Below, piece by piece: positions 1,949 to 53,359 of a stretch of 64,000 nt of DNA. The stretch's first letter is position 1. Each line of letters starts with the position of its first letter. Origin of the DNA: an uncultured Gammaproteobacteria bacterium (lineage in GTDB: Bacteria; Patescibacteriota; Microgenomatia; Levybacterales; GWA1-39-11). The DNA lies in contig CAZEGF010000022.1 in NCBI GenBank assembly GCA_964511965.1, forward strand, positions 12,101-76,100, in the 5' to 3' direction. Made by a program: the position numbers and the translations under genes. The notes beneath the pieces were generated by a model. It saw only the letters and a program-made list of their open reading frames with translations, was not told the origin of the DNA and did no database searches.

Positions 1949-2968
1949 TCATCTGTCGATGACACCTCCCCATTCTATAGCTGTAAATCCAATACGTTTT
2001 GGAGGAGTGGGTGGATCAAATAGTTTGGTTTCAAACTTCTCATCAACACCTTTAAAGTATGCGATAAACTGGATGAAGGTATCTGGTTTTGGTGAAATTT
2101 CAACATGATCAGTTCTTTCTTTTTCCTCGCGGTCTAAAATTGAGAAGAAAATATATTTTTTGTTAAGATCTGTCAAGCGGGGAGTCCAGTATTCAACGAA
2201 TTCTTCCGATTCGAAAGAATTAAGACCAAGTTTTTGTGTTTTAATTTTAAGTTCATTTCTTATGTTTTCGGTTTTAATAAACATTCCATTGTTGGGAGCA
2301 TTTAGCGTTTTTGATTCTGACTCGTAATAAAGCTCCCTGTAGTAATTACCTTGGTATTTCAAAACTCCGCTTGGCATGGCCAACACTCCAAACCAGCCAT
2401 TATTATATTCAGGAATACTTTCTACTATGTTTCCTGACACTGTAACATCAACAAAAGTAGGTTTTTCAGGGTACAGATAAATTACCGGTTTTCCCATGCA
2501 ATACCAATGGCATGACGGATCCTCTGAAGCACGCGCCTGACATTGAGGCGTGTCGCCTGTACATGTTGGATTTGCAAGTGGTGGGAAATTCCCATTGCAA
2601 TACAGTCCAATTGGTAGATTTGGATTACAGGTGCAACCTATCCTTTCCCCATAGTGAGGGCAGTAATTGCCTGTGGGAGTAGGGATAATTGTAATTCCCG
2701 GTTGTGTGGGAATTGGGGTAACTGCTGTTGGAGTTGGAGAATCAAAATCAAGATCTGTCATGTGTAGCCCTTTGCTATCTACCTGTTTGCTACCGGATGA
2801 CGTATACGTATTTGTATCTGAAATTGGAGATTTGGGGTGCTTGAAAAATCCAGTAAAGTTCATGATGACAAGAAGAACAAGCCCCATGAAAAAAAGAGAA
2901 AGAGCAGAAAAACCCTTCTGCTGTTTAGTAGACATAAGACAGTAGACATAAGACAGAAGTTTAATCAT
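1949..2968 (-). CDS. Secreted Cys/Pro-rich protein; true start may be the internal Met at about 2935
   Basis: 339-aa ORF with a TM/signal segment after MSTKQQKGFSALSLFFMGLVLLVIM. The first 11 codons are encoded by the hexamer repeat agacataagacag, so the start at 2968 is doubtful. Confidence 0.5.
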   Translation of the reverse strand: MIKLLSYVYCLMSTKQQKGFSALSLFFMGLVLLVIMNFTGFFKHPKSPISDTNTYTSSGSKQVDSKGLHMTDLDFDSPTPTAVTPIPTQPGITIIPTPTGNYCPHYGERIGCTCNPNLPIGLYCNGNFPPLANPTCTGDTPQCQARASEDPSCHWYCMGKPVIYLYPEKPTFVDVTVSGNIVESIPEYNNGWFGVLAMPSGVLKYQGNYYRELYYESESKTLNAPNNGMFIKTENIRNELKIKTQKLGLNSFESEEFVEYWTPRLTDLNKKYIFFSILDREEKERTDHVEISPKPDTFIQFIAYFKGVDEKFETKLFDPPTPPKRIGFTAIEWGGVIDR

Positions 2969-3029
2969 ATAAATAGTATAGAGCTTTTAACATTTCACTT
3001 CTACCTTATGACTTCTGACTTATAGCTTC

Positions 3030-3725
3030 TTATTTATAAACTACCGGGGGCTCTGTCGGGAAAACGCCATTGATGGGATAATTTACGATAAGAGTGCTTT
3101 TTTGAAGAACTATAACTTTTCCGCCGTTTCTATTGATCAAAGCAGTTGCAGGAGAGAATGATATTGAAGTTTTTGTGACATTTGTGTTTTTGGGTACAAA
3201 TGTAAGTACAGCTACTTTACCTTGCCCTTTTTGTAGGGGAGTTGTTGCGGCCATTTGAAGAGGAAGAGTTATAATCCCATGAACAGTGTCATTTGAAGAG
3301 GAAGATGTCTCAAAGGCGAGTGAAACTGTAGAATTTTTGTCTTTGAACTGGGTAAGTGTTACATTGTCAATTACATTGGGGTTATAGGCTATAGAAATAT
3401 TTGCCCCGGAGATTTCTTTGCCCCAGGTGTTAACATATACATCAATTGATTGCGTTTTTCCTGGCAATGCATTCACTGTGGTCGGATCAAAATAAACCGT
3501 CGCTTCAGGAGAAGTGAGATTTACTGTCGGTGTAGGGCCAGTGAAAATCCCATTTTTCCCACCTTTTCCGGTAATAAGTGCCACGACAAAAATTATAACT
3601 AGAAAAAGAACTATTGCCCCAGCCAAAAGAACGACTTTGTTTTTAATCAGTTTCTGCAAAGTAACTTCTGGCTTCTGGCTTTTAGCTTCTGGCTCCTGAC
3701 TTATGTTTTTATTTTCTTCTTCCAT
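3030..3725 (-). CDS. Membrane-anchored surface protein, possibly with an Ig-like or cohesin-like beta domain
   Basis: 231-aa ORF with N-terminal TM VVLLAGAIVLFLVIIFVVALI. The N-terminal tail SQEPEAKSQKPEV is encoded by the AGCCAGAAGC repeat. Confidence 0.5.
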   Translation of the reverse strand: MEEENKNISQEPEAKSQKPEVTLQKLIKNKVVLLAGAIVLFLVIIFVVALITGKGGKNGIFTGPTPTVNLTSPEATVYFDPTTVNALPGKTQSIDVYVNTWGKEISGANISIAYNPNVIDNVTLTQFKDKNSTVSLAFETSSSSNDTVHGIITLPLQMAATTPLQKGQGKVAVLTFVPKNTNVTKTSISFSPATALINRNGGKVIVLQKSTLIVNYPINGVFPTEPPVVYK

Positions 3726-5908: not shown

Positions 5909-6442
5909 CTAGCAGCCGGTAGGGGGGCCGGTTTTTATTACTTTTTCGACACCTCCCGATGAAAGTTTTATTCTCCAATTTTTTGTATTGTAGCCGGTTG
6001 CGTTATCAAGTTTTACGCTGTAATTTTCGGCAGGTGAATGAAAGGGGATTGCAGCATCTAGCTTCCACGTACCAACAGGATTTTCAATCTCAAGAGTGAT
6101 TGTGCCATCAGTACTTCCTTTTGCCGTGATATTTTCTTGCTTGAAAGAAGACTTTCCTGTTTGGCAAGTCCCCTCCACAATATCAATTGACCAACTGGCA
6201 TCTGGAGTAGGGGTGACGGTTGTGCTTCCAGGGGTAGAATTTGCGTCAGTAGTAGGGGAGGGCTCGTCAGTTATTGAAGATGGTTCATTTCCGGTAAAAA
6301 GTGAGCCTCCACCACCTGCAAGCATTACAGCAAAAATGATAACAACAATGACAAGAATAATATAAACGGTGGATTGGCCGCGCGAGCGTTGCTCGCGTGT
6401 AGCAAGTAGCAAGTAGTAAGCATCAAGGCAGTTTTTGAGCAT
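5909..6442 (-). CDS. Membrane-anchored Thr/Pro-rich surface protein
   Basis: 177-aa ORF with a TM followed by a Gly- and Thr/Pro-rich linker. The N-terminal tail overlaps the AGCAAG repeat plus the palindrome cgcgagcgttgctcgcg. Confidence 0.45.
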   Translation of the reverse strand: MLKNCLDAYYLLLATREQRSRGQSTVYIILVIVVIIFAVMLAGGGGSLFTGNEPSSITDEPSPTTDANSTPGSTTVTPTPDASWSIDIVEGTCQTGKSSFKQENITAKGSTDGTITLEIENPVGTWKLDAAIPFHSPAENYSVKLDNATGYNTKNWRIKLSSGGVEKVIKTGPPTGC

Positions 6443-6508
6443 AGTTTAAGCATACCACAGAGTCACGATATTCTTGATTCTTTATTCTTTATTTGCGTAC
6501 AATGAAGT

Positions 6509-7447
6509 ATGGCTGAAAGACGAAAACGTGGTGGATATTTTGGTAACGGAGGTTCTTCATCTGGTGGTCGTTTTGGAATGAGTCTTACTGGACCGGGTAC
6601 AATGTTCACTATTGCATTCATTGCACTAGCAATTGGCATGGGCATATTACTCTCAAGAGGAGTAACTCCAAAAACAGTCCTCTCGGATCCGGGTGAAACG
6701 GGAGACTTGGAATTGGTTCTTGAAACCCCTTCTGCAAATGGATCACGTCTACAATTAAAAACTTTGAAATTTAGAGAATGCGCAAGTAAGGCTGCTGTTG
6801 GACTTATTGTTGATCGCTCTGGGTCTATGAGGGGAGAAAAGATGACAAATCTTAAAGATGCGCTTAGTACATTCACTACAGGGCTTGGTAACCAATCAGT
6901 AATTGGTATGATTTCATTTAGTAGTAATGATAACTCAATCGAAACGAGTGAAGATGTTCCATTTTCAAGATATCAGGATGTAAAAGGACAAGTTGCTTCT
7001 GCTATAAAAGCGCTATATGCAGCAGGTTCTACCCACACAAGAGCTGCATTTGCACTCATGAAAGATAGAATTATTGTAGCACAAAAAAAATTCCCCGAAA
7101 ATAATTTTGCAATGATTTTATTGTCTGACGGTGTCCCTGAGGATAGATCCGAAACAGGAACGAATTGTCCAAGTGGCCTGTTACATGGAGGAAGATGTTT
7201 TGCATTATCTCAAGATCCAACTCAAGAACCAAGTATAGCTCGTGAAATCCGTGATGCAGGAATAAATGTTTACGCGATAGCAATTTATGATAAAAATGAT
7301 CCGGATGATGTGTATTTTCTGCCAGCAATGCGCAACATGATGCAAAATATTGTGTCTTCTCCTACTAATTTTTACGAGACTCCAGATCCAACGAAATTGA
7401 AACAAATATACAAAGAAATCGCACAAAAAATCTGCAGCGACCTCTGA
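6509..7447 (+). CDS. von Willebrand factor type A (vWA) domain protein, membrane-anchored
   Basis: The MIDAS motif DRSGSM (DxSxS) follows an N-terminal TM. Length and layout are typical of vWA proteins. Confidence 0.75.
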   Translation: MAERRKRGGYFGNGGSSSGGRFGMSLTGPGTMFTIAFIALAIGMGILLSRGVTPKTVLSDPGETGDLELVLETPSANGSRLQLKTLKFRECASKAAVGLIVDRSGSMRGEKMTNLKDALSTFTTGLGNQSVIGMISFSSNDNSIETSEDVPFSRYQDVKGQVASAIKALYAAGSTHTRAAFALMKDRIIVAQKKFPENNFAMILLSDGVPEDRSETGTNCPSGLLHGGRCFALSQDPTQEPSIAREIRDAGINVYAIAIYDKNDPDDVYFLPAMRNMMQNIVSSPTNFYETPDPTKLKQIYKEIAQKICSDL

Positions 7448-7480
7448 TAAGTAGCAAGCAGCAAGCATTATGTAGAAAGG

Positions 7481-9369: not shown

Positions 9370-10482
9370 ATGCTGGTTACAGTTCTTGCTTTCATAATAA
9401 TCCTTTCCGTTCTTGTTATCGTCCACGAATTAGGTCATTTCTTTGTTGCCAAAAAATTAGGAATTAAGGTAGAAGAATTCGGAGTTGGGTTCCCACCGAG
9501 AGCTTTCAGTCGCAAAATAGGTGAGACCGTATATTCCATTAACTGGCTTCCTGTAGGAGGGTTTGTGAAATTGTATGGTGAAGATGCAGCAGGAGGGGGT
9601 TCGGTAAGAAGCAAGCAGCAAGAAGCAAGTAGCAAGGGTGTGGATGAGGTGGAGCGGGCATATTATGCAAGACCGCTGTGGCAAAGAATGGCAGTTGTTA
9701 CTGCTGGGGTTATCATGAATGTAATTTTGGCAATTGTTGTTATCTCATTTCTCTTTGCGACACAAGGAGTTCCACTACCTACGGACAACATTATTGTCAC
9801 TGAAGTTGCGCCTAATTCACCTGCTGCAATTGCCGGCATTTTAAAAAATGACAGAATATTAAAAATTGATGGTAAGCAAATAAAAACAACAGAATTATTT
9901 ATTTCACAAACCAAAAAACTCCGCGGACAAGAAGTGACTCTTATTGTAAAAAGAGGAGACAGCGAATTTACGACAAAGTTAACTCCACGGTTAAATGCTC
10001 CGAAAAATCAGGGTGCGATGGGGGTTGCAATATCCAACATCGAAGTTAAAAAATATTCCTGGTTTGAAGCGCCCATTTTTGGGACAATTGAGGCTGCAAA
10101 ATTTTCGTGGATGATAGCAAGTGGGCTTGGCACGATGATAGTTGATTTTGTTTTGCATGGGACAAAACCACAAGGAGTAGCAGGTCCTATTGGTGTTGCG
10201 CAGCTAACTGGTGAAGCAGTAAGAGCAGGGTGGTTTGCAGTATTGTGGTTCATGGCTCTTCTTTCCCTAAATTTAGCCGTTCTTAATATCTTACCTATTC
10301 CAGCCCTTGACGGAGGTCGTTTTTTCTTTATGATAATCGAAATGCTTACTGGCAAAAAAGTAAGTCCAAAATACGAAGCATATGCTCATGGTGTTGGGCT
10401 CGTTCTCCTACTTGGTCTTATGGCGGTCGTGACATTACTTGATATAGTTAGACTTCTGCAGGGGAAAAGCATAATACCCTAA
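9370..10482 (+). CDS. rseP: RIP (site-2) zinc metalloprotease RseP
   Basis: HELGHF motif, PDZ region and the LNLAVLNILPIPALDGG motif. An in-frame insertion SKQQEASSKG is encoded by the AGCAAG hexamer repeat at 9606-9634. Confidence 0.9.
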   Translation: MLVTVLAFIIILSVLVIVHELGHFFVAKKLGIKVEEFGVGFPPRAFSRKIGETVYSINWLPVGGFVKLYGEDAAGGGSVRSKQQEASSKGVDEVERAYYARPLWQRMAVVTAGVIMNVILAIVVISFLFATQGVPLPTDNIIVTEVAPNSPAAIAGILKNDRILKIDGKQIKTTELFISQTKKLRGQEVTLIVKRGDSEFTTKLTPRLNAPKNQGAMGVAISNIEVKKYSWFEAPIFGTIEAAKFSWMIASGLGTMIVDFVLHGTKPQGVAGPIGVAQLTGEAVRAGWFAVLWFMALLSLNLAVLNILPIPALDGGRFFFMIIEMLTGKKVSPKYEAYAHGVGLVLLLGLMAVVTLLDIVRLLQGKSIIP

Positions 10483-10536
10483 ATTGAAACTTGAGAGTTG
10501 AGATTTGAGAATTGAGAGACTATACTTTTTAAAATC

Positions 10537-11186: not shown

Positions 11187-11804
11187 ATGCGAATTCCAAA
11201 AGCATTAGAGCGTGTTGTAGAAAGTTTTGAGCGTCTTCCCGGTATTGGCCCTAAGTCGGCGCAACGATTGGGATTTTATTTACTGCATGTTCCCCAAAGT
11301 GATCTAGAAGATTTTGCCGACGCGCTTATAAATCTTAAGAAAAATACGAAAATGTGTGCGATTTGTTTTAATATCGGGACTACTGAACTTTGTGATGTAT
11401 GTGCAGATCCGGAGCGTGACAATGGAACTATTTGTGTAGTTGAAGATACTCTAGACGTTCTGGCATTTGAAAAGTCAGACAAATATAAAGGGGTATATCA
11501 CGTATTGCATGGAGTTGTTGATCCATTAAATTCTATCGGACCGGATGACATTTATATTCCACAACTGATGAAGAGGATCAAGCAGCAAGCAGCAAGTGGT
11601 AAGCAAATAGAAGAAATTATTATAGCTACAAATCCCACGATGGAGGGAGAAGCAACAGCTATGTATATTGTGAAAGGTATGAAGAACGAGGAATTAGGGA
11701 TTAAGATCAGTAGAATTGGGAGAGGATTGCCGGTCGGTGCAGATATTGAATATGCGGATGAAGTGACATTGGGTCGAGCTTTGGAAGGAAGAAGCGAATA
11801 CTAA
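11187..11804 (+). CDS. recR: Recombination protein RecR
   Basis: LPGIGPKSAQRLGFYLL HhH motif, C4 zinc finger (CAICFNIGTTELCDVCAD), Toprim IIATNPTMEGEATAMYI. In-frame IKQQAASGKQ insertion encoded by the hexamer repeat. Confidence 0.95.
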   Translation: MRIPKALERVVESFERLPGIGPKSAQRLGFYLLHVPQSDLEDFADALINLKKNTKMCAICFNIGTTELCDVCADPERDNGTICVVEDTLDVLAFEKSDKYKGVYHVLHGVVDPLNSIGPDDIYIPQLMKRIKQQAASGKQIEEIIIATNPTMEGEATAMYIVKGMKNEELGIKISRIGRGLPVGADIEYADEVTLGRALEGRSEY

Positions 11805-13415
11805 CTAACTTTGGCCATCTGTTCCGGTCGGGGCAAGTGGAGATGCTCCTGGAAAAGCAATGACGTTAGATGGAGCTTCACCTGCAGTTGCTTGAGTACC
11901 TCCAAGTGAATCCAGTCCTGTTGCTGGTGCTGATTCGGAAACTGATTGTTGCGCTTCACCTGGGAAAGCGAGTACGTTATTTACTTCTTTTGAATTTGGA
12001 ACAATTTCCAGCTTTGGAGTTTGTGGTAGACCTGCAGCGAGTGGGCTTGAGCCATCAACCATCCCTGGTCCAGTAGCAGAAGCATTTGGATCTGTTGGTG
12101 ACATACCACCGGGAACTGCAGTTACCGGAGCGGTTGGATCAACATCAGTGTTAGCAGTAGCTACAGCGGCATCAGCGACTTCACCGGTTGTAGCTGGTTC
12201 TGATCCGGTTTCAATTGGGATATCGTGGCCAACTTCTTCACTACTGTTTAATGCTTCAGTGGTAAAAGGTGGTTTGTCTGCTGCAGCAGCAGCACCATCT
12301 GCCATTGCTTTTCCTAATGCATCTCCATCAACTGCAGCATCTCCACTAACAACAGGGGCATCAGGATGTGATGCAGTCCCATCGACTGACCAATCAGGAG
12401 GAGCTTGCATTCCATCAGCGACAGCTCCCGGACCAGCATGAACAGCTTCATCATTTGCATCAGCGGATTGAATTGGTGCTTCAGGTTCTTCAACGTGAGT
12501 TTCTGCAACTGGTTCTACCGCTGGAACAGAGGCAACAGGAGTAGTTGTGACATCAGCAACAGATTCGACTGGAGTAGTGGTCGGAGCATCAGGAAGTGTG
12601 CTTTCCTCTTGCGCAGGTTCAGCAGTTGCGCTAGGTGTAAATTCTGCAGGCTTGTCTTCAGTAGTTACTTGGGCAACAGGTTCTGCAATTGATTCTTCTG
12701 CTTCAGCCATAGGTTCAACGGGTGGCTGAGGTACAACTTCCGGTTGAGATGTTCCAAGACTTGGTGCATCTGATGCAACAACTTCTGCTGGAGCAGGTGA
12801 AGATGCGACCACTCCGCCATTTTCTGGACTTGAAATAGAATTTTGGAATGGAACACCAGTCGCAACACCGGCAGCTGTTGCATCAGGTGTTGAGAGTCCA
12901 GCGTAATTATTCTCAGGTGTTGTTGCAGTGGGTGCTTCAAACTTTGGAGCAGAGGCACCATCTGCCGTCGCTCCATTAAGGTTTGCTACATCTGGAGTTT
13001 GAAGTGTCCCATTGCCTGTTGGTATCAAATGATCAGGTGGGGTCGCAACAGCTGCAACTTCTGGCTTTTTACTTTTAAGACCCATTCCTTCCAGTGCTCC
13101 ACCAATAACTTTTCCAAACAAACCTCGTCTTTGTTCGGTCACTGGTGGTTGGTTTTGAACATCTTTCTTCTCTTCAACCATTGCGTTGTGGGTTGCTATT
13201 ATTTCAGGTGTTTGAGGTGTACCAACAGGTTCAAGTCCTGTTAAGACAGCCGGATGTTCTCCTGTTGCCTCCATATCTTGAGTAAGAGTAGTCGATTGTG
13301 CATTCGGATCAGAAGGAGCAGCAACAGACGCTTCGGCAGCAGAACTTGGGGGTACTACACCGTCAACTGGTTGAACACTAGAATTAATATTAGGGGATTC
13401 CGGTTGAATATCCAT
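11805..13415 (-). CDS. Acidic low-complexity (Pro/Ala/Thr/Val/Glu-rich) protein, probably intrinsically disordered
   Basis: 536-aa ORF with no TM segment and a locally higher-GC, strongly biased composition. Internal repeat NV(L/I)AFPG. No recognisable domain. Confidence 0.45.
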   Translation of the reverse strand: MDIQPESPNINSSVQPVDGVVPPSSAAEASVAAPSDPNAQSTTLTQDMEATGEHPAVLTGLEPVGTPQTPEIIATHNAMVEEKKDVQNQPPVTEQRRGLFGKVIGGALEGMGLKSKKPEVAAVATPPDHLIPTGNGTLQTPDVANLNGATADGASAPKFEAPTATTPENNYAGLSTPDATAAGVATGVPFQNSISSPENGGVVASSPAPAEVVASDAPSLGTSQPEVVPQPPVEPMAEAEESIAEPVAQVTTEDKPAEFTPSATAEPAQEESTLPDAPTTTPVESVADVTTTPVASVPAVEPVAETHVEEPEAPIQSADANDEAVHAGPGAVADGMQAPPDWSVDGTASHPDAPVVSGDAAVDGDALGKAMADGAAAAADKPPFTTEALNSSEEVGHDIPIETGSEPATTGEVADAAVATANTDVDPTAPVTAVPGGMSPTDPNASATGPGMVDGSSPLAAGLPQTPKLEIVPNSKEVNNVLAFPGEAQQSVSESAPATGLDSLGGTQATAGEAPSNVIAFPGASPLAPTGTDGQS

Positions 13416-13449: not shown

Positions 13450-14196
13450 TCAAGAGTTTTTGCCTTTTTTCCATAGGGCATTTTGTAATAAAACGCCATA
13501 AACATCGGTCTCAGGGTCTATAGAAAGAAGTTTTAATTCCTCCTCTGTCGGATTTCTGTCTTGAAAATTAACAAATGAAATATCCGTAACAACAGCAAGT
13601 GGGGTTTGATTTGCGCCTTCACCCATAACAACTACTGCAGCAGCGGCAATTCCTTCCATAACTCCAACTTGAGTCATTTTTAAAATCCTCCCAAAAATAT
13701 CTGGTGTACCAACGTGGTTATTAAGTGCCAAAAATCCACTATGAGCGATCCCAATTCCCGTTATTCCATATCGTAGTGGTGTGGTTTTACTGTCTGTTAT
13801 CAAAACTCCAACATTTTTTATATTATGTTTTTGAACCAGATGTTCTCTTATTTTATTTGCACTATCTTGAGGATTTTTTGGCCATAATACATATCCGTCA
13901 ATTGTATTTGATTCGTCTATTCCGGCGTTTACTGCCAATATATTATTTTTTAAAGTTACTATTAGTTGGAATGAATTTGTTTCTTTCGGAAGATATTTGT
14001 CAGCTTGTGAGATGACCAAGCTTTCCTTATCAATAGAATCCATGGCAACTGTGTTACCCTCACAAAGTGAGACTATTTTACTCGTAATAACGAGAATGGA
14101 ATTTTCAGAAAGAGTAGGGACATATTGATCAATTATTTTAAGTATGTCATTGTCTTTCACCGTTATTTTGTGTGTTTTGATTGGTACAATATTCAT
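13450..14196 (-). CDS. CofE-like gamma-glutamyl ligase family protein (coenzyme F420-0:L-glutamate ligase-like)
   Basis: N-terminus IVPIKTH...DNDILKII...NSILVITSKIVSLCEGN fits the CofE family pattern (IPI...GDDL...DIVVITSKIVSKAEGR). Confidence 0.5.
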   Translation of the reverse strand: MNIVPIKTHKITVKDNDILKIIDQYVPTLSENSILVITSKIVSLCEGNTVAMDSIDKESLVISQADKYLPKETNSFQLIVTLKNNILAVNAGIDESNTIDGYVLWPKNPQDSANKIREHLVQKHNIKNVGVLITDSKTTPLRYGITGIGIAHSGFLALNNHVGTPDIFGRILKMTQVGVMEGIAAAAVVVMGEGANQTPLAVVTDISFVNFQDRNPTEEELKLLSIDPETDVYGVLLQNALWKKGKNS

Positions 14197-14203
14197 TTGA
14201 ATT

Positions 14204-15307
14204 TTAAAATCTTGGAACTAAAATATTTTTTGTATCGATAAGATCGTATTTGAAGAGGATATTAGATAAAATCGGAGATTTAGTTGCATAAAGTAATTTT
14301 CTTGGATATTTTTCCGCTCTCAGATTTTCAATTTCATGGTATCCCAATAAATAACACGCATCTTTTGGAAATCCTCCCGGGCGGGATGTATCGCGCATAC
14401 CTCTTTTAACACGATACGTCATAATAAAGGCTCTTTGAGGACTTAGATTTTGTGACAATATTTCATAAATCTCAACAAAACTCTTATCGATATTTCTCAC
14501 AGCTTTTATCCGATGGAAATACATTTCAAAAGCACTTGGAGTAATTTTTCTTGTTATGATTTCATTATATATAGCAAGCCCTTCGCTATATAAATTTTGG
14601 TTTCCATATTTTGTAAATTCAGTAAGAAGAGTTGATGAATTTTTTATATTTTCAGTTTGAATGGCATGTGATTCTATTTCATGGACTACGAGCCGATCTA
14701 CATTACATTCAAATCTCTTAATTTCGCTTCCTATTACTATTGTATTATAACCAACCCCAATCATGTGCGGAGCAAAGCTATTAATCTTAACGGTAAAGCT
14801 ATTAATATTATATTTTCGAAGAGCTTTTTCAAATCTTTCTTTTATTTTTTGCGCATCTTTTATTTTATGTTTTATATGCATCTTAAATTCTACATTCGGA
14901 GTATTTGCTAGCAACAAATCTAACCGGTCGGTTCCCCAATTATAAAGTTTATGAACGATTTCGGAAAAATCATCTTCTCCGATTGACAATTTTGTATGAT
15001 ATAAATCAATTTGATTATCTAAAAATTCCAAGATATGTTGTTTGAGATCCTCAGGAATTTTCAAAGAATCAACTCTTAATTTAAAATTATCAATTATTTC
15101 AGGGATATTTGGAAGCTCCTGTTTTTTGTAAATGTATTGTGGATTATAAGAATGGTTTTCAAAGAATTTTGCCATCTCCTCAGAATAATTGAGAGGTGTG
15201 AGAGAAACGTTTCCTAGGCGAAGAGAATTTTTAATTCCTATGATTTCGCGGGCTAATAATTCTAACTTTTCTCTATCCGGAAAAGAATGCATTTGAGATG
15301 ATTTCAT
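14204..15307 (-). CDS. DUF1704 / MATCAP-like putative metallopeptidase (QEGLA-motif family)
   Basis: Contains HEIESH (HExxH) and SEGLA. Both motifs are diagnostic of the DUF1704 / tyrosine carboxypeptidase-like family. Confidence 0.45.
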   Translation of the reverse strand: MKSSQMHSFPDREKLELLAREIIGIKNSLRLGNVSLTPLNYSEEMAKFFENHSYNPQYIYKKQELPNIPEIIDNFKLRVDSLKIPEDLKQHILEFLDNQIDLYHTKLSIGEDDFSEIVHKLYNWGTDRLDLLLANTPNVEFKMHIKHKIKDAQKIKERFEKALRKYNINSFTVKINSFAPHMIGVGYNTIVIGSEIKRFECNVDRLVVHEIESHAIQTENIKNSSTLLTEFTKYGNQNLYSEGLAIYNEIITRKITPSAFEMYFHRIKAVRNIDKSFVEIYEILSQNLSPQRAFIMTYRVKRGMRDTSRPGGFPKDACYLLGYHEIENLRAEKYPRKLLYATKSPILSNILFKYDLIDTKNILVPRF

Positions 15308-15686: not shown

Positions 15687-17285
15687 TTGTGTGTGAGTCT
15701 ATACATGCATATAATTAGTAACATGCAGTTGAATAAATTCTCAGAAAATCTTATTCATCTTTTCGAGAAGGCAAAAGAAGTACCGCTTGAAAGTGCCAAT
15801 ATTATAAATCCCCTCGTATCCGAGCTTGCTTCCTGGTACGAAAAATTCAGAAATTCTATCGAATACCGTGACGAGGAAGTAATTCTCAGAGCATCAATTG
15901 AGAGAATCTTAAAAAGAAGACTAGCTCTTGGTGGGACTGGAGCAACCGCTGCAAAGCCACTACTTAAAGAGCTAGTGTGGGCACGGTATTTTCCGGAGAG
16001 TTTGTACACTGAGGAGACGATAAACAATATCGAAAAAATTATAAATTTTTATCTCCAACTAAAAAATGAAATCGTAAAAAACCATATCCTAAAAGAAGGA
16101 GAGATGCGGAATCTCATGTTTCAATTAATGTCATCTGATGTAGAGCAAACACTCCATCCAAATAAAGTAGAGGAAGCAGTCGGCAACTATATATTTTATG
16201 TTTTGCAGCACAATATCACAATTGATGAGGGGATGGAGGAGGAAAGGGATGTTCAGTTGTTTATAGCTATCAGACGTGCGTATTCAAAAGACGATCTTGC
16301 TTTTCTAAGATTCAAGCTTTACACACAATACTTTGGGAAGATGAGTTTTCAAGAACCGGCATCTGTTGCAGAAAAATTTGTTGACGCACATACACAAATA
16401 GAAAAACAGCTAACTCATCCGGCTCGTTTTAAAATTTTGTCATATGTTAAAAGACAAATCCCACCTTTTCTTATTATGGAAGATATATTTGCGAGTAACG
16501 AAAACATTCGAGAACTGGCCCAAAACGAGCAAGAATTAAATGATAATGTATTGGCAGCTTGCAAGAAAAAATATAAAACAATTTCTGAGAAAGTGAGACG
16601 TGCAATTATACGAAGTGTAATATTTATTTTACTTTCAAAAACATTAATTGCTTTTGGCATTGAAGGAACATATGAAAGAATTTTTCTGGGACACGTTCAA
16701 TGGTTAACGCTTGCTTTAAATGTTGCGATTCCAACTCTTTTTATGATTGTTGTTGGATTTTCAATAAGAACACCTGGTGATAAAAACTCTAGACTAATTT
16801 TATCCAGAATCCATGCACTTTTATTTGATGAAATGCCAAAGGTAGGACGTTCAATTGTTTTTCCACTTCCTGACAGTAAAAAACCACAAACCGTTATGGA
16901 ATGGGTATTTGGTATTTTATGGGTGACTGCATTTCTTTTAAGCTTTGGTGCTGTTTCATTGGGTCTTTCACTTTTGCATTTTAGTGTGGTCAGTCAAATG
17001 ATATTTATATTCTTCTTAGCAATAGTAAGTTTCTTGGCTTACCGAATAAATATAACTGCACACGAATATAGTGTTGAGAGTAGACAAGGAATACTTACTC
17101 CAATTGTCGACTTTTTCTTCATGCCAATTGCCCGAGTTGGACAATATCTGACCGCAGGAATTTCTCAAATAAATATTTTCTTATTTATTTTAGACTTTAT
17201 TATTGAGGCGCCTTACAAAGGGTTGGTTGCTTTCTTTGATCAGTGGTTTTTCTTCTTACACTCCAAGCGGGAAGAGATAGGATAG
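15687..17285 (+). CDS. Hypothetical polytopic membrane protein
   Basis: 532-aa ORF with a soluble N-terminal half followed by at least five hydrophobic helices. No recognisable family. Confidence 0.5.
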   Translation: MCVSLYMHIISNMQLNKFSENLIHLFEKAKEVPLESANIINPLVSELASWYEKFRNSIEYRDEEVILRASIERILKRRLALGGTGATAAKPLLKELVWARYFPESLYTEETINNIEKIINFYLQLKNEIVKNHILKEGEMRNLMFQLMSSDVEQTLHPNKVEEAVGNYIFYVLQHNITIDEGMEEERDVQLFIAIRRAYSKDDLAFLRFKLYTQYFGKMSFQEPASVAEKFVDAHTQIEKQLTHPARFKILSYVKRQIPPFLIMEDIFASNENIRELAQNEQELNDNVLAACKKKYKTISEKVRRAIIRSVIFILLSKTLIAFGIEGTYERIFLGHVQWLTLALNVAIPTLFMIVVGFSIRTPGDKNSRLILSRIHALLFDEMPKVGRSIVFPLPDSKKPQTVMEWVFGILWVTAFLLSFGAVSLGLSLLHFSVVSQMIFIFFLAIVSFLAYRINITAHEYSVESRQGILTPIVDFFFMPIARVGQYLTAGISQINIFLFILDFIIEAPYKGLVAFFDQWFFFLHSKREEIG

Positions 17286-17387
17286 GAACACTAGTTTTCA
17301 ATTTTCAGTTCACAGTTTCCAATTAGTTTTCATTTAATTAATTTTCAATGAGAACTAACTGAGAATTGAGAAATTGTAACTGGAAAC

Positions 17388-17726
17388 TCATTTGATTTCG
17401 AGGAGTTCAACTTCGAATATGAGATCGGCAAGTGGTGGGATAACATCCCCGGCACCTTCTTCTCCATACCCTAAAGTATATGGAATATATAATTTTCTTT
17501 TTCCGCCTTTTTTCATCCCTGGGACTCCTTTGTCCCAACCGGCAATAACATGACCAACACCGATTTTTGTTTGGAATGGAGCACCCCGGTCTACTGAACT
17601 GTCAAATTTTTCACCATCATCAAACGTACCGGTATAATGAATAACAACGGTGTCACCTGCTTTAACGGCAGGACCAGTTCCCTCAACTATTTCTTCGATC
17701 TTAAATTCTGTGACATTAGTTTTCAT
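17388..17726 (-). CDS. FKBP-type peptidyl-prolyl cis-trans isomerase
   Basis: GDTVVIHYTGTFDDGEKFDSS...IAGWDKGVPGMKKGGKRKLYIPYTLGYGEEG is a canonical FKBP domain. Confidence 0.9.
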   Translation of the reverse strand: MKTNVTEFKIEEIVEGTGPAVKAGDTVVIHYTGTFDDGEKFDSSVDRGAPFQTKIGVGHVIAGWDKGVPGMKKGGKRKLYIPYTLGYGEEGAGDVIPPLADLIFEVELLEIK

Positions 17727-17775: not shown

Positions 17776-18141
17776 TTATTTTACTCCTACGAAATCAATG
17801 CGGGGGAGAAAGGCACGTATCTGATCCCAGAATTTGTCAGAAAGTCCCGTTGAAAATTTTGAATACTGTCCTTTATCTTGTTGGGAGGTTAATTTCCTTT
17901 CGTATTCACGAATAATATCAACGACTTTTGCACCTTTTTCATTGAACTCTTTTTTAAAAGTTTCTTCATCTTCAACAAATTTGTCATGAACTTCTTTGAA
18001 ATCAAGCATTGTGTCTCGATGCTCTTCCATCATTTCCAAAAATAGTTGGCGGTACTTAGCTGACATTTCTGAAATATTAAATTGAAATATGTAAATAGTC
18101 AAGAGTATTGATAAGTTATCAGTTCTCAATTTACAATTCAC
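17776..18141 (-). CDS. Hypothetical protein; likely start at the internal Met (MSAKYRQLF)
   Basis: ORF only; charged helical sequence. Confidence 0.35.
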   Translation of the reverse strand: MNCKLRTDNLSILLTIYIFQFNISEMSAKYRQLFLEMMEEHRDTMLDFKEVHDKFVEDEETFKKEFNEKGAKVVDIIREYERKLTSQQDKGQYSKFSTGLSDKFWDQIRAFLPRIDFVGVK

Positions 18142-18237
18142 AGTTAATTCTCAATGAAAATTAATTAAATGAAATCTAATTGAAAACTGGAAACTGAAAA
18201 ATGGAAACTTATATAAATAAACTGTATAATTGAACTC

Positions 18238-19146: not shown

Positions 19147-19220
19147 TAAATTGAGAGTTGAGATTTGATATTTGAGAATAGTAAAATAAGTATTCCAGAA
19201 AGCGAATCCCCGGTTTTTAT

Positions 19221-21056: not shown

Positions 21057-21106
21057 ATTTGAGATTGAAATTTTTTGGTAGTAACTCTACAATAATAATT
21101 GACACT

Positions 21107-21287
21107 TTAAATCAAGAGGAGGAGTAGAGTATTGGCTCGTTGATCCCTCCAGCAACCTTTCGGCAATCTCAAGGTAAACCCAGAGATCTGAAAAGGTGCT
21201 ACACCCAACCCTATTAAGGGAAGGATTAGCTTCGATTAAATCGGAGAATAAATAAAAACCTCTCTTTTAGGGAGGTTTTTTTGTGCC
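21107..21287 (+). ncRNA. Candidate small RNA or leader: promoter-like TTGACA-17-TAGAGT, about 140-nt hairpin-forming transcript, intrinsic terminator (cctctcttttagggagg + T7)
   Basis: Seen in sequence: -35/-10-like boxes at 21101-21132 and a terminator hairpin plus T-run at 21258-21287. Contains GGTGCT...GGGAAGGA reminiscent of SRP RNA, but not convincingly so. Confidence 0.25.
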
Positions 21288-32562: not shown

Positions 32563-32823
32563 AATTCACCAATTCCTAATCACTAATTACTACTCCAAAG
32601 GAGCAAGCTTTGCTTATTCACTAGTCACTATTTTGCGGGTTGACTTCAGTTTTTTTTAAAGCCTACAATTAAATAAGAAGAAAGTAGCAAGAAGCAAGTA
32701 GAAAGGGAAAATATGTTCTCTTAATACTTTATTCTTTATTCTTTATTCTCCCAAAATGTATTAGCTTTTGGACCGACTGGGACTAAAGCCAAGGAATGCA
32801 ACATTTAAAATATATAACGAAGC

Positions 32824-34068: not shown

Positions 34069-34093
34069 GAGAATAAAGTGGTGAGAATAAAGT

Positions 34094-35389
34094 ATGAAGG
34101 AAATACTTTATACTTACTTCTTGATTCTTAATTCTAAAAATAATATGAGGAAATTGTGGAGACAGTTACGAATTAAGCTTCTTATTATTATGGCGGTCAT
34201 GGGGCCAGGACTTATTACTGCTTTTGCAGATAACGATGCCGGTGGTGTAGCTACCTATTCGGTTGCTGCAAGTAAGTTCGGTTACTCAATGTTAACGACC
34301 CTTATACCAATTACTGTAGTTCTTATGATTACACAAGAAATTGGAAGTAGGCTTGCAGTTGTGACAGGAAAAGGACTTGGTGATCTAATACGGGAAAAAT
34401 TTGGAATCCGAGTTAGTGTTCTTATTTTTACAATTTTATTCTTTGTTAATTTCGGCGTTATCATCCAGGATCTTGGTGGACTGAAAGATAGTCTTTCGCT
34501 TTTTCACCTAAATTTATGGATTTTTATGCCCATTGTGATAGCTTTTCTATTCCTTCTTATTACAAAAGCATCATATGCAAAGGTCGAAAAGTTTTTCCTC
34601 TTTCTTATATTTTTCTACCTCTCGTATGTGATAAGCGCAGTATTGGCAAAACCTGACTGGGCGTTAGTTGGAAAATCATTAGTAATTCCTCATGGAAAAA
34701 TTTCATTTGGATATTTGTATACCGCTGTTGCTGTTCTTGGAACTACCGTTACTGCATGGGGACAATTTTTTATAAATAGTTATGTAAAAGACAAGAAATT
34801 AACCGTAGACCGTCTCAAATACAACCAAGCAGAAATTTATTTTGGAGCATTTCTGACTGACATCATAACACTTTTTATGATGGTTGCAGTTGCCGCAACA
34901 ATATTTATCCATAACATACAAATTTCAGGTGCGGCTGATGCTGCTTTGGCTATCAAGCCATTCGCAGGGGATCTAGCCGGTGTGATGTTTGGGGCAGGAC
35001 TTTTGATCGCTGGATTTATCGGGGCAGCAATTGTGCCGTTAGCAACGGCATATGCTTTTTCTGAATTTTTCGGGTATGAGGGAAGCCTTGATGTCAGTTT
35101 TAGTAAAAGCCGTCTTTTTTACGGATTTTTTATTGGGCAAATCCTTCTGGGACTTTTAGTTATCAGTTTTCCAAATTTCTCGCTTTTCAAAATTACTTTG
35201 TATGCTGATTTTATTAATGGTATTTTCCTGCCCGTTATCTTTTTCTTCTTATATAAATTTGTGAATGACAAAGAACTTATGGGTAAATATAAAAATACGA
35301 AATTCCAAAATATAATGCTTGTAGGATCGGGTCTTGCAATAACAATTGCCGCTCTCGTCGGTGGTATCGGATCGCTTTTAGGGAAATAG
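34094..35389 (+). CDS. NRAMP-family divalent metal transporter (MntH-like)
   Basis: MAVMGPGLITAFADNDAGGVATYSVAASKFGY matches the NRAMP GPG...DxGN signature. About 11 TM helices. Confidence 0.65.
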   Translation: MKEILYTYFLILNSKNNMRKLWRQLRIKLLIIMAVMGPGLITAFADNDAGGVATYSVAASKFGYSMLTTLIPITVVLMITQEIGSRLAVVTGKGLGDLIREKFGIRVSVLIFTILFFVNFGVIIQDLGGLKDSLSLFHLNLWIFMPIVIAFLFLLITKASYAKVEKFFLFLIFFYLSYVISAVLAKPDWALVGKSLVIPHGKISFGYLYTAVAVLGTTVTAWGQFFINSYVKDKKLTVDRLKYNQAEIYFGAFLTDIITLFMMVAVAATIFIHNIQISGAADAALAIKPFAGDLAGVMFGAGLLIAGFIGAAIVPLATAYAFSEFFGYEGSLDVSFSKSRLFYGFFIGQILLGLLVISFPNFSLFKITLYADFINGIFLPVIFFFLYKFVNDKELMGKYKNTKFQNIMLVGSGLAITIAALVGGIGSLLGK

Positions 35390-49959: not shown

Positions 49960-50145
49960 GTTTTTTTTGAAAAGCTTTTGAGGTATGAGCCCTGTCGTGC
50001 TCTATCACAACAAACATGTTTATATTTAGATGAAGTTGAGATATAAGCAAAGCTTGGCTACGCTAAGCAAAGCTTGGCTACGCTAAGCAAAGCTTGTACC
50101 TCAAAATCTATTAGTTTTTTTTGAAAAGCTTTTGAGGTATAATTA
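49960..50145. repeat. Palindrome-rich repeat block: ttttttttgaaaagcttttgaggtat x2 flanking tandem aagcaaagcttggctacgctaagc x2
   Basis: Seen directly. A third aagcttggctacgctaagcaaagc copy sits at 46165-46200. Confidence 0.85.
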
Positions 50146-50379: not shown

Positions 50380-50462
50380 GTTTAGAATAAAGGAGTAGGA
50401 ATAAAGAATAAAGGAACTTGCTTAATACTTAATTCTTAATACTTAATTCTAATTTTCAAAGT

Positions 50463-50849: not shown

Positions 50850-50955
50850 AGTGAATTAAGGGTTAAGAATAAAGTATTAAGGGTTTACACCTGAATTTAT
50901 TTCGAATATACTGCTTTTGCTTAATACTTACTTCTTGATTCTTTATTCTTAAGTT

Positions 50956-53149: not shown

Positions 53150-53359
53150 GACTGTACCTCTCCTTGTGTCGTATTCGACAACCAACATGCAATTCTCAAA
53201 TAAATTGTAAATTGGTTGTCGACTACGACTTCTCCCAAAATTTCAAAGTGCAAATAAATACATTTAGCACAATTTCTTTACAAGCAAAAAAAGTAAAGAA
53301 TTATCCTATTTGTGGCTAGATTATAGCATATAGTAGTTTTAAATGAGGATATGGCAAAA

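Follow-up and report, generated by a model that had tools for sequence, protein, structure and literature searches.

Short tandem words recur both in the intergenic spacers and inside 3 conserved genes of a 64-kb stretch of DNA (hereafter, the window), which is part of a Candidatus Levybacteria (Patescibacteria/CPR) genome. The host genes, identified by Pfam, encode RseP (M50 and PDZ domains), RecR, and DnaX, and the question is what these words are, how they arise, and how they persist in proteins of this kind. An earlier note on the sequence read them as hexanucleotide repeats inserted in-frame into essential genes by an expanding repeat family. The arrays are real, lie far beyond chance, and had been described correctly in part; the interpretation attached to them is partly supported.

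Period and abundance of the arrays

Autocorrelation at 7 array sites amounts to 0.67–0.86 at period 7 and 0.56–0.93 at period 14, with 0.10–0.25 at period 6, and TRF resolves the arrays of the window into head-to-tail tandem units of period 7/14. The window contains 13 period-7 arrays versus 0.15 expected from Markov shuffles, and no enriched arrays were found at periods 4–6 or 8–11 across its whole length; apart from the 14-nt harmonic, 7 is the sole enriched period. In 1.3 Mb from 80 related loci, we counted 236 period-7 arrays versus 9 of period 8. The hexanucleotide period is thus ruled out by TRF, by autocorrelation, and by the window-wide counts.

With the period falls the reason that had been offered for frame preservation, because the unit has 7 nt, not 6; as 7 mod 3 is 1, gain or loss of a single unit would shift the frame. 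The multiples do keep the frame, but not as a property of the unit: the reading of each coding array passes through all three frames, and its total length alone is divisible by 3.

Chance and compositional artefacts are ruled out by the shuffles and by the comparison with other periods. An assembly artefact is unlikely, given that the exact proteins occur on 6–16 contigs (NCBI, JGI, Logan, ENA), and is further disfavored by 4 arrays that are base-for-base identical in the independent assembly of the same-species strain L086. A search of the window against Rfam returned a SAM riboswitch only, with no match at the arrays. The coordinates of the arrays and associated hairpins are collected in Table 1.

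Table 1. Heptamer arrays and associated features in the 64-kb window (z, folding relative to shuffles)
Feature	Position	Strand	Evidence and details
Intergenic AGCAAGN/CTAGAAG-family array with short hairpin	1787–1825	−	TRF; z −2.71
Inverted pair of 14-nt-period arrays (2927–2959 and 2997–3038)	2925–3038	−	Hairpin z −2.49, 1/200 shuffles
Coding array, N-terminal tail of membrane-anchored ORF 3030–3725	3660–3705	−	TRF, autocorrelation
AGCAAGT array, 5′ edge of ORF 5909–6442 (− strand)	6395–6422	+	
Intergenic AGCAAGC array directly 3′ of the stop of VWA-domain gene 6509–7447	7449–7467	+	TRF
rseP coding array	9606–9637	+	TRF, autocorrelation; 4.4 heptamers, 14-nt super-unit
TTGAGAN array, 4 units, between rseP and frr	10489–10518	+	TRF
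recR coding array	11577–11599	+	Autocorrelation; units ATCAAGC-AGCAAGC-AGCAAGT-GG
Intergenic hairpin	32675–32751	+	z −2.69; TRF
Spacer upstream of ybeY, (AGAATAA)n and inverted (CTTAATA/CTTAATT)n, hairpin	50380–50470	+	z −2.25
ybeY-dnaX spacer, inverted heptamer arrays (arms 50853–50881 and 50920–50948)	50853–50952	+	
dnaX in-frame insert	51136–51201	+	66 nt; L081 has 6 nt there
dnaX C-terminal linker array	52058–52120	+	TRF, autocorrelation; ~9 units GNAGNCA
AATTCTC, 1 copy (L081: 3 copies, +14 nt)	53184–53200	+	Comparison of the window with L081

The pattern AGCAAGN.AGCAAG (≤1 mismatch) occurs 16 times at 8 loci of the window, versus 0.48 expected, a count that none of 100 shuffles reaches; the AGCAAGN word is present exactly at 6 loci and with at most 1 mismatch at 8. 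Same-species genomes excepted, it is absent from the ~85 other genomes sampled. Judged by this distribution, AGCAAGN is a lineage-specific word common to the spacers and the 3 genes. The words thus recur beyond any single gene, and the earlier claim that the same words, as one repeat family, populate spacers and coding loops holds; for instance, the array in rseP and the spacer array at 32674–32707 match at 91% identity over 34 nt.

Units are otherwise diverse (122 canonical forms among 270 arrays; A+T, 77%), which rules out a single binding motif. In the census, 112 arrays fell in the noncoding 10% of the sequence and 116 deep inside long ORFs, in the coding 90%; intergenic density is ~8.7-fold higher per base, so that, per base, the arrays are predominantly intergenic. 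The share inside long ORFs is 43%, a figure based on ORF-derived gene calls, in which some arrays counted as deep in coding sequence may sit in false ORFs or leaders (e.g., that at 34118). On the sense strand, arrays in coding sequence are rich in purines (mean 0.62), and K, S, Q, and N make up 53% of the encoded residues, in agreement with the view that the words are tolerated as hydrophilic Ser/Lys/Gln/Glu/Ala-rich loops. The encoded segments lie in permissive places, namely the 2 low-confidence AlphaFold segments of DnaX, a loop of RseP, and a loop of RecR.

Arrays inside rseP and recR

The rseP array (units AAGAAGC, AAGCAGC, AAGAAGC, AAGTAGC, and a partial AAGG) encodes SKQQEASSKG, the peptide predicted earlier, in the loop between the GEDxAGGG and RAYYARP motifs, and is identical in strain L086. 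The loop measures ~13–20 aa in 44 of the 45 Levybacteria orthologues and 31 aa in the remaining one. Its period-7 identity is at least 0.70 in 16 of the 45, with differing units, compared with 1 of 969 control rseP segments. The site is extended by 16 aa relative to the solved structure of Aquifex RseP; within Levybacteria, the loop is present across the orthologues and its sequence alone is rewritten, so that the insertion proposed for RseP is not borne out. The rseP gene of L038 carries an apparent stop or frameshift, which may be a product of heptamer repeats.

The recR array encodes IKQQAASG(KQ), again matching the proposed peptide, in a short loop that is 3 aa longer than in the closest species and 5 aa longer than in Thermoanaerobacter RecR (PDB 3vdp). 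In L086, a different heptamer array (GGAAACA-GAAAACA-GGGGACA) occupies this place, and 9 of the 12 loop positions differ between the same-species variants. The array borders a tract, extending from 11577 to ~13100, in which divergence from L086 is raised. From its extent, this difference is probably a recombination tract, not in-place turnover of the RecR loop, and we have withdrawn the latter reading.

Loops of this kind could be hypervariable for adaptive reasons, with diversifying selection acting on RseP, RecR, and DnaX (e.g., escape from phage or host inhibitors) and the heptamers serving as the mutational means. Loop sequences wholly different among orthologues with conserved flanks, as well as the RecR difference, would fit. 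However, the repetition is at the nucleotide level (7 nt equals 2.33 codons), the same as in the noncoding spacers, and the signal is therefore mutational, not peptide-driven. Moreover, the RecR difference sits at the edge of the probable recombination tract, and same-species variants do not differ in their RseP and DnaX arrays. These proteins are cytoplasmic or membrane housekeeping factors, and we know of no interaction at the loops in question. We regard adaptive diversification as very improbable.

The insert and the linker of dnaX

The dnaX insert comprises 8 heptamers at 51148–51203 (TCTAGCA, ACTTGCA, ACTAGCA, TCTAGCA, AGAAGCA, AGAAGCA, AGAAGCC, and AGGAGCC), is partly palindromic, and separates the Walker-A helix (..AINC) from the zinc module (EPCNKCDVC), where a repeat had been claimed. 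The site exceeds that of E. coli gamma (solved structure) by 20 aa; the DnaX, RseP, and RecR sites are all extended relative to solved orthologues from unrelated lineages. DnaX is the case in which insertion into an essential gene stands, the insert being absent from L081 despite 99% identical flanks. Approximately half of the DnaX homologues, L081 among them, lack it, and it is therefore dispensable. Inserts of 66–93 nt are found at this one codon in 7 lineages, with unrelated sequences and a common plan, that is, an array, an A-rich center, and a reverse-complement array. In 5 of the 7 lineages they fold with z of −2.49 to −8.19. Folding is seen on both strands, with the antisense as good or better, and thus gives no sign of selection on the sense RNA.

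The palindromic insert could be taken for a small mobile element of the RPE (Rickettsia palindromic element), MITE, or REPIN type, belonging to a lineage-specific hairpin family that was copied into spacers and, in frame, into gene loops. It keeps the frame, occupies a surface loop, and is found in one but not another of near-identical strains, and RPEs provide a precedent (PMC10969869). The restriction of AGCAAGN to this species among the genomes sampled and the resemblance of the rseP array to a spacer hairpin arm point the same way. Array pairs within a genome share long matches twice as often as pairs between genomes (2 of 2,000 permutations reach the observed value), and 2 L081 spacers (9424–9515 and 15045–15140) resemble one ~85-nt element by eye, a match that blastn-short did not report. 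Yet the within-genome excess is only twofold, and no second full-length copy of the insert exists in the 64 kb, where matches are at the level of arrays and span 20–34 nt. The insert boundaries show neither a target-site duplication (CTGC/ACAG...GGAG/CCT versus the empty CTGC TTGACC CCT of L081) nor visible terminal inverted repeats in the comparison with L081, and 66–93 nt of tandem units are unlike the ~150-bp RPEs. Repeated independent hits on a single dnaX codon would be improbable unless it were nearly the sole permissive site. No transposase was found among the ORFs scanned, and no RAYT (Y1 transposase) gene in the scanned subset of window ORFs; the window represents a minor part of the genome. 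A mobile origin is, in our estimation, quite improbable.

The linker array consists of the units GGGGACA, GAAGTCA, GAAGACA, GCAGGCA, GGAGACA, GTAAACA, GTAGTCA, GAAGTCA, and GAAGGAA and encodes GQKSEDSRQETVNSSQKSEG; the peptide stated previously, QKSEDSRQETVNSSQKSEG, is recovered there. The same GNAGNCA unit family occupies the site in L084, whereas L081 has AAGAATT and CAATCAC arrays instead. In the AlphaFold model of DnaX, pLDDT drops below 50 only at residues 75–83 and 369–416, both array-encoded, with values of 25–45 in the latter, which corresponds to the linker. A GGA AAA AAC sequence in the linker was considered as a programmed frameshift site and is treated as chance, because it is not conserved in L081 or L084. 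A metagenome scan for further alleles with the dnaX flank returned one unrelated genome.

Arrays in N-terminal tails and spacers

Arrays had also been assigned to the N-terminal tails of 3 surface proteins. The one in ORF 3030–3725 (CCAGAAG on the sense strand, 5.4 units; tail peptide SQEPEAKSQKPEV) is clearly coding, because the tail aligns gap-free to the L002 orthologue. The other 2, at 2925–2958 and 6392–6418, are ambiguous with respect to the start codon, with an internal ATG at 2935 and a TTG at 6412, respectively. The closest L002 copies of these ORFs align only from residues 13 and 21, and a more distant L002 paralogue of ORF 1949–2968 aligns from residue 1. Two of the 3 putative cytoplasmic-tail arrays may be untranslated leader. 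The array at 6395–6422, which is pyrimidine-rich on the sense strand of ORF 5909–6442, is probably a leader or a divergent spacer. The 2925–3038 hairpin spans the junction of ORFs 3030–3725 and 1949–2968, and its left arm overlaps with what would be the first 15 codons of the latter, the start codon of which is the ambiguous one.

Among the spacers, the hairpin at 32675–32751 is composed of an AGCAAGN-family arm (32675–32705), a loop, and a TTCTTTA-family arm (32719–32751), and the TTGAGAN array downstream of rseP belongs to the same family as the array at 19151–19177.

Structures of this kind raise the possibility that the arrays, above all the inverted pairs, are selected nucleic-acid elements, with the coding copies retained for the same role. 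As functional cis-elements, they could act as RNA hairpins between co-directional genes (terminators, processing signals, or stabilizers), as tandem −35-like boxes, or as docking sites for a protein that binds RNA or ssDNA and reads heptamers. Folding is better than in shuffles for 5 spacers of the window (z −2.25 to −2.83), and 3 of the 4 orthologous L081 spacers keep hairpins built of different units (z −2.67, −5.76, and −2.82). Of 11 intergenic hairpins, 8 fold better as sense than as antisense strand (mean, 3.9 kcal/mol). Some depend on G.U pairs, for example that at 15045–15140 of L081 (−25.6 versus −10.2 kcal/mol, 8 G.U). TTGAGAN arrays furnish 2 of the 6 best sigma-70-like sites in 11 kb, the dnaX palindrome is retained at the same codon by 5 of the 7 lineages, and MacGregor suggested translational regulation via heptamer arrays (PMC4679880). 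However, a significant inverted partner was found for only ~6 of the 22 window arrays, and among the coding arrays for none except dnaX, internally, so that a hairpin is not a universal feature. The rseP, recR, and dnaX-linker arrays have no excess structure relative to shuffles (z −0.17 and −1.30), and the dnaX inserts, as noted above, are dispensable and fold as well or better in antisense. Furthermore, the units differ between close strains, which is ill-suited to a sequence-specific binding factor. Selected cis-elements are, on balance, an unlikely explanation of the arrays.

Turnover between close strains

The window and L081 share ~97% DNA identity (99.05% in the dnaX core), and 19 blocks hold 855 of the 1,343 differences, many of them period-7 arrays in both genomes. 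The AATTCTC array, with 1 copy in the window and 3 in L081, is the one clear unit-number (slippage) polymorphism. Most array differences are unit replacements at constant length; upstream of ybeY, for example, the L081 block is equal in length and made of other units, and in one equal-length block the same substitutions are repeated in each unit. Within the species, array lengths are identical in 3 DnaX and 2 RseP variants. Given this identity of length and sequence, the arrays are not hypermutable on that timescale. A bAvd-family gene, considered as a possible connection to diversity-generating retroelements, is present in L086 and absent from the window.

Expansion of the family is not seen: the same-species variants are constant in length, and RseP loop length is narrowly constrained. 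The copy-number variation that the earlier note suggested looking for in relatives exists at AATTCTC and was not seen at the coding arrays of the same-species variants. Similarly, the 3 DnaX and 2 RseP variants, a small sample, show no length change of the kind expected of phase-variable contingency loci, in which unit number switches a gene; here, short degenerate arrays reside in housekeeping genes.

Origin of the arrays

With modest confidence, we favor the interpretation that the arrays are heptanucleotide simple-sequence repeats (SSRs) that arise through slippage and template switching and are then filtered by selection. A bias of replication or repair toward 7-nt misalignment would create short arrays, slipped-strand pairing would homogenize them, and fold-back or inter-array template switching would generate the inverted copies seen as hairpins and spread the favored units of a lineage among loci. 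The process would be genome-wide, with selection purging most of its products from genes. Coding survivors would be those whose whole length, unlike that of the unit, is divisible by 3, which are free of stop codons in each of the three reading frames, and which place a harmless K/S/Q/N/E-rich peptide in a loop or linker that is disordered and exposed at the surface; there they would be neutral. The RseP loop, the RecR loop, the site preceding the DnaX zinc module, and the linker between DnaX domains III and IV would be such permissive sites, at which arrays would persist for long while the unit sequence turns over, thereby yielding hypervariable protein loops.

Some observations sit apart from slippage alone. 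Slippage alters length, whereas the units of orthologous spacers change at constant length. Nor does it explain the plan of the dnaX insert, shared at one codon by 7 lineages with unrelated sequences, or the presence of AGCAAGN at 8 loci here and its absence from ~85 other genomes. A bolder proposal, which we consider rather unlikely, is an active, lineage-specific copy-and-homogenize process for heptamer arrays, involving templated synthesis or inter-array conversion beyond passive slippage, that would rewrite permissive loops of essential proteins and maintain the dnaX palindrome. If this were true, the loops would be rewritten repeatedly from the genome's own pool of units, an in-frame palindrome in dnaX would be maintained at a fixed codon phylum-wide despite sequence turnover, and the number 7 would be the footprint of a specific enzyme, identifiable by comparing array-rich and array-free genomes.

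Relationship to known repeats

Heptamer repeats have been known in bacteria from about 1990 on, and their general excess was recognized in 2007; their cause and function have not been established. The strict STRR1–3 are specific units of heterocystous cyanobacteria, which the diverse AT-rich units of Levybacteria do not match. According to PMC4679880 and PMC4692102, both of which document the heptamer SSR class and the proposal of polymerase slippage, Mrazek, Guo, and Shah (2007) reported heptanucleotide long SSRs as over-represented in many prokaryotes; PMC4692102 also remarks that there is no detailed literature on heptamer repeats. We found no report on such repeats in CPR/Patescibacteria. 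The best reading is that the arrays described here belong to this known class, of which the cyanobacterial STRRs and the Xanthomonas/Nostoc and Beggiatoaceae heptamers are the most familiar members, and that the CPR lineage is new and the location in housekeeping genes unusual.

Like the Mrazek-type SSRs and the STRRs of Calothrix and Nostoc, for which cause and function are equally obscure and polymerase slippage has been proposed, the Levybacteria arrays consist of 7-nt tandem units with a period-7 excess, are mostly intergenic, comprise many units per genome, are patchy among lineages, and differ in length or sequence between close relatives. Unlike them, they occur in CPR/Patescibacteria, are AT-rich and do not follow the STRR consensus, lie to 43% in long ORFs, conserved housekeeping genes included (where the literature expects units divisible by three), and are maintained at orthologous loops of proteins throughout the phylum while the units differ.

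The Xanthomonas GGGAATC and Nostoc GGGGA(C/T)T repeats (PMC4692102) likewise lie between the same genes in relatives with variable length and sequence, some as convergent inverted pairs capable of forming stem-loops, and 7–11% of them overlap ORFs. Their units, one of which dominates in each genus, are rich in G and could form G-quadruplexes, whereas Levybacteria have many units, rich in A/T or in purines, that are often found in coding loops. The TAACTGA repeats of Beggiatoaceae and cyanobacteria (PMC4679880) are also short heptamer arrays, often directly upstream of start codons, with occasional in-ORF copies as heptapeptide repeats and an obscure mechanism, but they have one fixed unit, related heptamers being rarely repeated, in contrast to the 122 units in 270 arrays counted here.

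RPEs (PMC10969869) share with the dnaX insert a palindromic structure and in-frame, fold-compatible positions in unrelated housekeeping genes; they form dispersed ~150-bp families, each with a conserved peptide, whereas the dnaX inserts are heptamers of lineage-unrelated sequence at one site, with no dispersed full-length copies in the window. Finally, Borg repeats (PMC9879509) are A-rich, evolve rapidly between relatives, and form in a genome-specific manner; approximately half are in ORFs, creating disordered hydrophilic segments, and disorder is likewise predicted here. Borg ORF repeats have units divisible by three and give perfect amino acid repeats, unlike the degenerate arrays of 3–10 units described here, in which a 7-nt unit is read in three frames.

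Implications

Levybacteria constitute a clean natural experiment, in which array-rich and array-free relatives stand side by side (0 to 13 arrays per 21 kb) and strains 97%–99% identical differ in blocks that are often arrays. This material could render the hypothesis of a 7-nt footprint testable. Annotators of CPR genomes should be aware that heptamer repeats may lie behind low-complexity loops, unusual N-termini, and apparent stop codons or frameshifts. As the arrays are written into essential genes, selection reveals which of them are tolerated. Hypervariable loops result from them, as does the presence or absence of 20 aa in DnaX, a subunit of the clamp loader. The material also shows how non-triplet repeats can produce new disordered protein segments.

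The period of the repeats and the reading frame

The strings and peptides quoted in the earlier note match the sequence, and the word behind them is real and common to spacers and genes: AGCAAGN.AGCAAG, with at most 1 mismatch allowed, has 16 matches at 8 loci in the window against 0.48 expected (see table). The period is 7 nucleotides rather than the 6 first proposed, with a self-similarity of 0.67–0.86 at a shift of 7 versus 0.10–0.25 at a shift of 6 at 7 of 7 sites. At a shift of 14, self-similarity is 0.56–0.93 across the same seven sites, and Tandem Repeats Finder returns a period of 7 or 14 at every one. The whole window holds 13 strict period-7 arrays where Markov shuffles predict 0.15, and periods 4–6 and 8–11 yield none; only period 7, with its 14-nt harmonic, is enriched. 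A more lenient detector recovers 22 arrays, and the observation of the repeats is robust.

Because gain or loss of a single unit moves the frame, a 7-nt unit does not preserve it, and the idea of a hexamer that keeps genes in frame unit by unit was mistaken. Arrays cycle through all three frames (in rseP, ...AGA AGC AAG CAG CAA GAA GCA AGT AGC AAG...), and divisibility by three holds only for the total length of an array. The insert in dnaX, for instance, is 66 nt versus 6 nt in a close relative, which amounts to 60 extra nt, or 8.6 units. Close strains also differ in the copy number of a perfect 20-nt tandem repeat, TAAGCAAAGCTTGGCTACGC, which belongs to another repeat class than the heptamers.

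Coordinates of arrays and other features (window positions unless another locus is named)
Feature	Position	Details
AGCAAGN.AGCAAG, conserved coding	rseP, recR, dnaX	n = 3
AGCAAGN.AGCAAG, plainly intergenic	1789, 7453, 32679	n = 3
AGCAAGN.AGCAAG, ORF 5' edges	6401, 35422	n = 2
rseP array	9606-9637	
recR array	11577-11599	
dnaX insert	51136-51201	before zinc module
dnaX linker array	52058-52120	
Slippery-type heptamer (X XXY YYZ)	52117-52125	GGA AAA AAC; -1 frame stop after 6 codons
Spacer regions folding better than shuffles	50380-50470, 2920-3045, 1780-1830, 17285-17390, 32670-32755	z -2.25 to -2.83
20-nt tandem repeat	50044-50096, upstream of rpsU	2.7 copies; 4.7 in L081
76-nt inverted repeat	17293-17368 and 18134-18209	88% identical, period-7-rich
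Small minus-strand genes between its copies	17388-17726; 17776-18141	FKBP-type; ORF
ORFs with uncertain starts	1949-2968; 5909-6442; 34094	third is Nramp gene
Nramp ORF as called	34094-35389	Pfam match begins at residue 52
Heptamer-array hairpin	34070-34128	26-nt arms, 81% complementary
TTGAGAN arrays	10491-10526; 19151-19187	TTGAGA-17-TATACT before frr; TTGAGA-18-TAAAAT before next gene (19151-19187 array)
Divergent ORF	11805-13415 (-)	536 aa, without Pfam match
23S_rRNA_IVP/bAvd-family gene	L086 4614-4961	115 aa
HTH_17 and serine recombinase genes	L082 2897-4694	upstream of ychF
PPDK/PEP-utilising enzyme gene	30087-32405	772 aa
SAM riboswitch	21106-21231	RF00162, 46.3 bits

Distribution among Levybacteria

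The closest relatives of the RseP protein, with best matches 86–88% identical, belong to Candidatus Levybacteria/Levyibacteriota (Microgenomates, Patescibacteria/CPR) and place the source genome there. In the 80 related loci compared (1.3 Mb, about 21 kb per relative), period-7 arrays number 236 versus 9 at period 8, spread unevenly with 0 to 13 in each 21 kb; the source genome itself is represented by the 64 kb of the window. The 270 arrays from 83 sources comprise 122 canonical units, 77% A+T, and therefore do not represent one single motif. By ORF-based gene calls, 112 arrays lie in non-coding sequence (10% of bases), 42 at gene edges and 116 deep inside long ORFs; density per base is 8.7-fold higher in intergenic sequence, and genes are far from array-free. 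Coding arrays have a mean sense-strand purine content of 0.62, with 5% of arrays below 0.4, and K, S, Q, and N make up 53% of the residues that they encode.

Given several uncertain starts in these calls, some “coding” arrays are probably leaders. The start of the Nramp ORF is probably annotated too far upstream, because its Pfam match begins only well inside the protein; a heptamer-array hairpin covers the first 12 codons of the ORF as called. Of the top six sigma-70-like matches across 11 kb, which are consensus matches only, 2 fall in the TTGAGAN arrays; these arrays could provide -35 boxes in several registers.

The sole Rfam match in the window is a SAM riboswitch, and no tRNA genes were found in the 64 kb. 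A G+C content of 56%, in surroundings of about 38%, points to horizontal acquisition of the PPDK/PEP-utilising enzyme gene.

Arrays in loops of conserved proteins

Pfam identifies the array hosts as the M50/PDZ site-2 protease RseP, RecR, and the tau/gamma clamp-loader subunit DnaX, in ordinary housekeeping neighborhoods (tsf-rseP-frr-recR and rpsU-ybeY-dnaX). The earlier note took these segments for lineage-specific insertions. Against solved structures of unrelated lineages, all three proteins do carry extra residues exactly at the arrays (+20 aa in DnaX relative to Escherichia coli gamma, 1xxi; +16 aa in RseP relative to Aquifex RseP, 9j82; +5 aa in RecR relative to Thermoanaerobacter RecR, 3vdp); within Levybacteria, the cases differ. 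The RseP loop spans 13–20 aa in 44 of 45 Levybacteria orthologues and 31 aa in the other, with a hypervariable sequence. In 16 of the 45, its DNA holds a 35-nt stretch with a period-7 identity of at least 0.70, a level reached by 1 of 969 equal-sized control segments elsewhere in rseP, and the units are all different (GTCAGAA, GTTCAAG, AAACTCA, AAAATTC, CGACGAA, GCCACGA, GGGAACA, and others). The loop is an old site whose sequence has been rewritten. That such loops reflect adaptive diversification seems highly improbable, since the signal sits at the nucleotide level. In the rseP orthologue of one relative (L038, ~6128-7237), an in-frame TAA within the loop array AGCCATA AGCCACC AGCCACC AGCCATC may mean a nonsense change driven by the repeat, a pseudogene, or faulty assembly.

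Among 114 DnaX homologues, the segment ahead of the zinc module has a bimodal length distribution (4–6 residues in 53, 10–41 in 61). The window has the insert and L081, a locus ~97% identical over 20 kb, lacks it, with the 846 nt between the two dnaX array sites 99.05% identical. The linker between DnaX domains III and IV bears arrays in all 3 genomes compared, built of GNAGNCA in the window, the GNAGNCA family in L084, and AAGAATT plus CAATCAC in L081. RecR of the window is 3 aa longer than that of the closest species. In the AlphaFold model of DnaX (mean pLDDT 78.7), values fall below 50 only at residues 75–83 and 369–416, the two array-encoded segments. A slippery-type heptamer in the linker was considered as a frameshift site like that by which E. 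coli dnaX makes gamma and was rejected: neither L081 nor L084 shares the motif, which is probably due to chance.

Change between close strains

The same-species locus L086 differs from the window at ~1 position per 100 nt, and the arrays at 9306, rseP, 10489, and 17747 are identical in the two. In RecR, the L086 loop is encoded by a different heptamer array, and since divergence is elevated from there onward (11577 to ~13100), we read it as an imported allele rather than an in-place change; an additional array lies past the recR stop in L086. The most divergent gene by far between these genomes, the 536-aa ORF, differs by in-frame indels (18, 24, and 9 nt) and by numerous substitutions, and may encode a fast-evolving surface protein or form part of a recombination tract. 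Between the orthologues of this ORF and of 13450-14196, L086 has a bAvd-family gene, of a family that includes diversity-generating retroelement accessory proteins; the window lacks it, with only 23 nt between the aligning blocks (13436 and 13460). The HTH_17 and serine recombinase genes of L082, whose DnaX is identical, form a small inserted mobile element that is missing from the window and L081.

Between the window and L081, 855 of 1343 differences fall into 19 blocks, many of them period-7 arrays in both genomes. AATTCTC at 53184 occurs once in the window versus three times in L081, a pure change in unit number. The spacer at 50380-50470 (91 versus 92 nt) has the same substitutions in each unit (AGAATAA... 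versus TGATTAA...), a pattern of concerted change. Arrays therefore change far more quickly than the sequence on either side, yet are not hypermutable contingency loci, because no length change occurs at the DnaX or RseP arrays among same-species protein variants in a small strain sample.

Hairpins, palindromes, and shared units

In a subset of spacers, an array is followed by its own reverse complement, and the longest inverted repeats of the window are of this type, between co-directional genes. Five such regions fold better than dinucleotide-preserving shuffles, and by the same measure 3 of 4 orthologous spacers in L081 keep hairpins with different units (z -2.67, -5.76, and -2.82). Sense-strand folding is favored in 8 of 11 intergenic hairpins, some of which rely on G.U pairs, a hint that some spacers act at the RNA level. 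As an explanation, selection for RNA or DNA elements is plausible for part of the spacers but weak for coding arrays, and rather unlikely in general. An inverted partner is present for only ~6 of the 22 window arrays, and none was found near the coding arrays. At the left copy of the 76-nt inverted repeat, L086 has unrelated arrays.

The exception among coding arrays is the dnaX insert, which forms an internal palindrome. Its plan in seven lineages is an array, an A-rich center (recurrent “KK”), and the reverse-complement array, with arms of unrelated sequence between lineages and folding z values, from mononucleotide shuffles, of -8.19, -4.84, -3.97, -3.41, -2.49 (window), -1.76, and -1.00. 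The inserts behave as DNA-level palindromes, because the antisense strand folds equally well or better and G.U pairs are few. The dnaX palindrome resembles a Rickettsia palindromic element in how it works (PMC10969869) and, as tested in the window, departs from it in dispersed copies, size, and target duplication. With no full-length second copy of the insert in the window, no target-site duplication, and no evidence there of discrete transposing copies, an RPE/MITE-like mobile element is improbable.

Units are nonetheless shared. Over 34 nt, the rseP array shares 91% identity with the stretch at 32674-32707, the 5' arm of a spacer hairpin, and a 21-nt match to the dnaX insert reaches 95%. Exact AGCAAGN.AGCAAG occurs 9 times at 6 loci of the window and is absent from the other fetched loci (~1.4 Mb, ~85 genomes, L081 included) except L086. 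A second family, GNRRNCA, lies in loop-encoding segments of rseP, recR, and dnaX, mostly in the window's nearest relatives, with two further matches (in relatives L065 and L078) without gene or loop assignment and none in shuffled sequence. Among all arrays, long matches link 2.9% of within-genome versus 1.3% of between-genome pairs, an ~2-fold difference reached in 2 of 2000 permutations. These comparisons indicate lineage-specific sharing of units between loci.

Origin of the arrays

The evidence best supports, with moderate confidence, heptanucleotide simple-sequence repeats of the kind over-represented in many prokaryotes. According to Mrazek et al. (2007), as cited in PMC4679880 and PMC4692102, this class is over-represented in many prokaryotes, slippage related to the polymerase footprint is proposed as its origin, and units divisible by three are expected in coding regions. 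The closest systems, cyanobacterial STRRs, the heptamers of Xanthomonas/Nostoc and Beggiatoaceae, and the general heptamer class, agree in period, excess, intergenic bias, and variability, but differ in host lineage, units, the proportion lying in conserved genes, and retention at orthologous protein loops. Borg tandem repeats likewise create disordered regions, but their units are always divisible by three (PMC9879509). Our literature search on CPR bacteria turned up no description of heptamer repeats.

Slippage would account for changes in unit number, whereas the concerted change at constant length, the inverted copies, and the units shared between loci would need an extra template-switch or conversion step. 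In this Levybacteria lineage, the process would be active enough for arrays to survive in genes too, but only where the whole array is divisible by three in length and free of stop codons in every frame, and where the peptide falls within a disordered loop. The mechanism behind the arrays is now open to testing.
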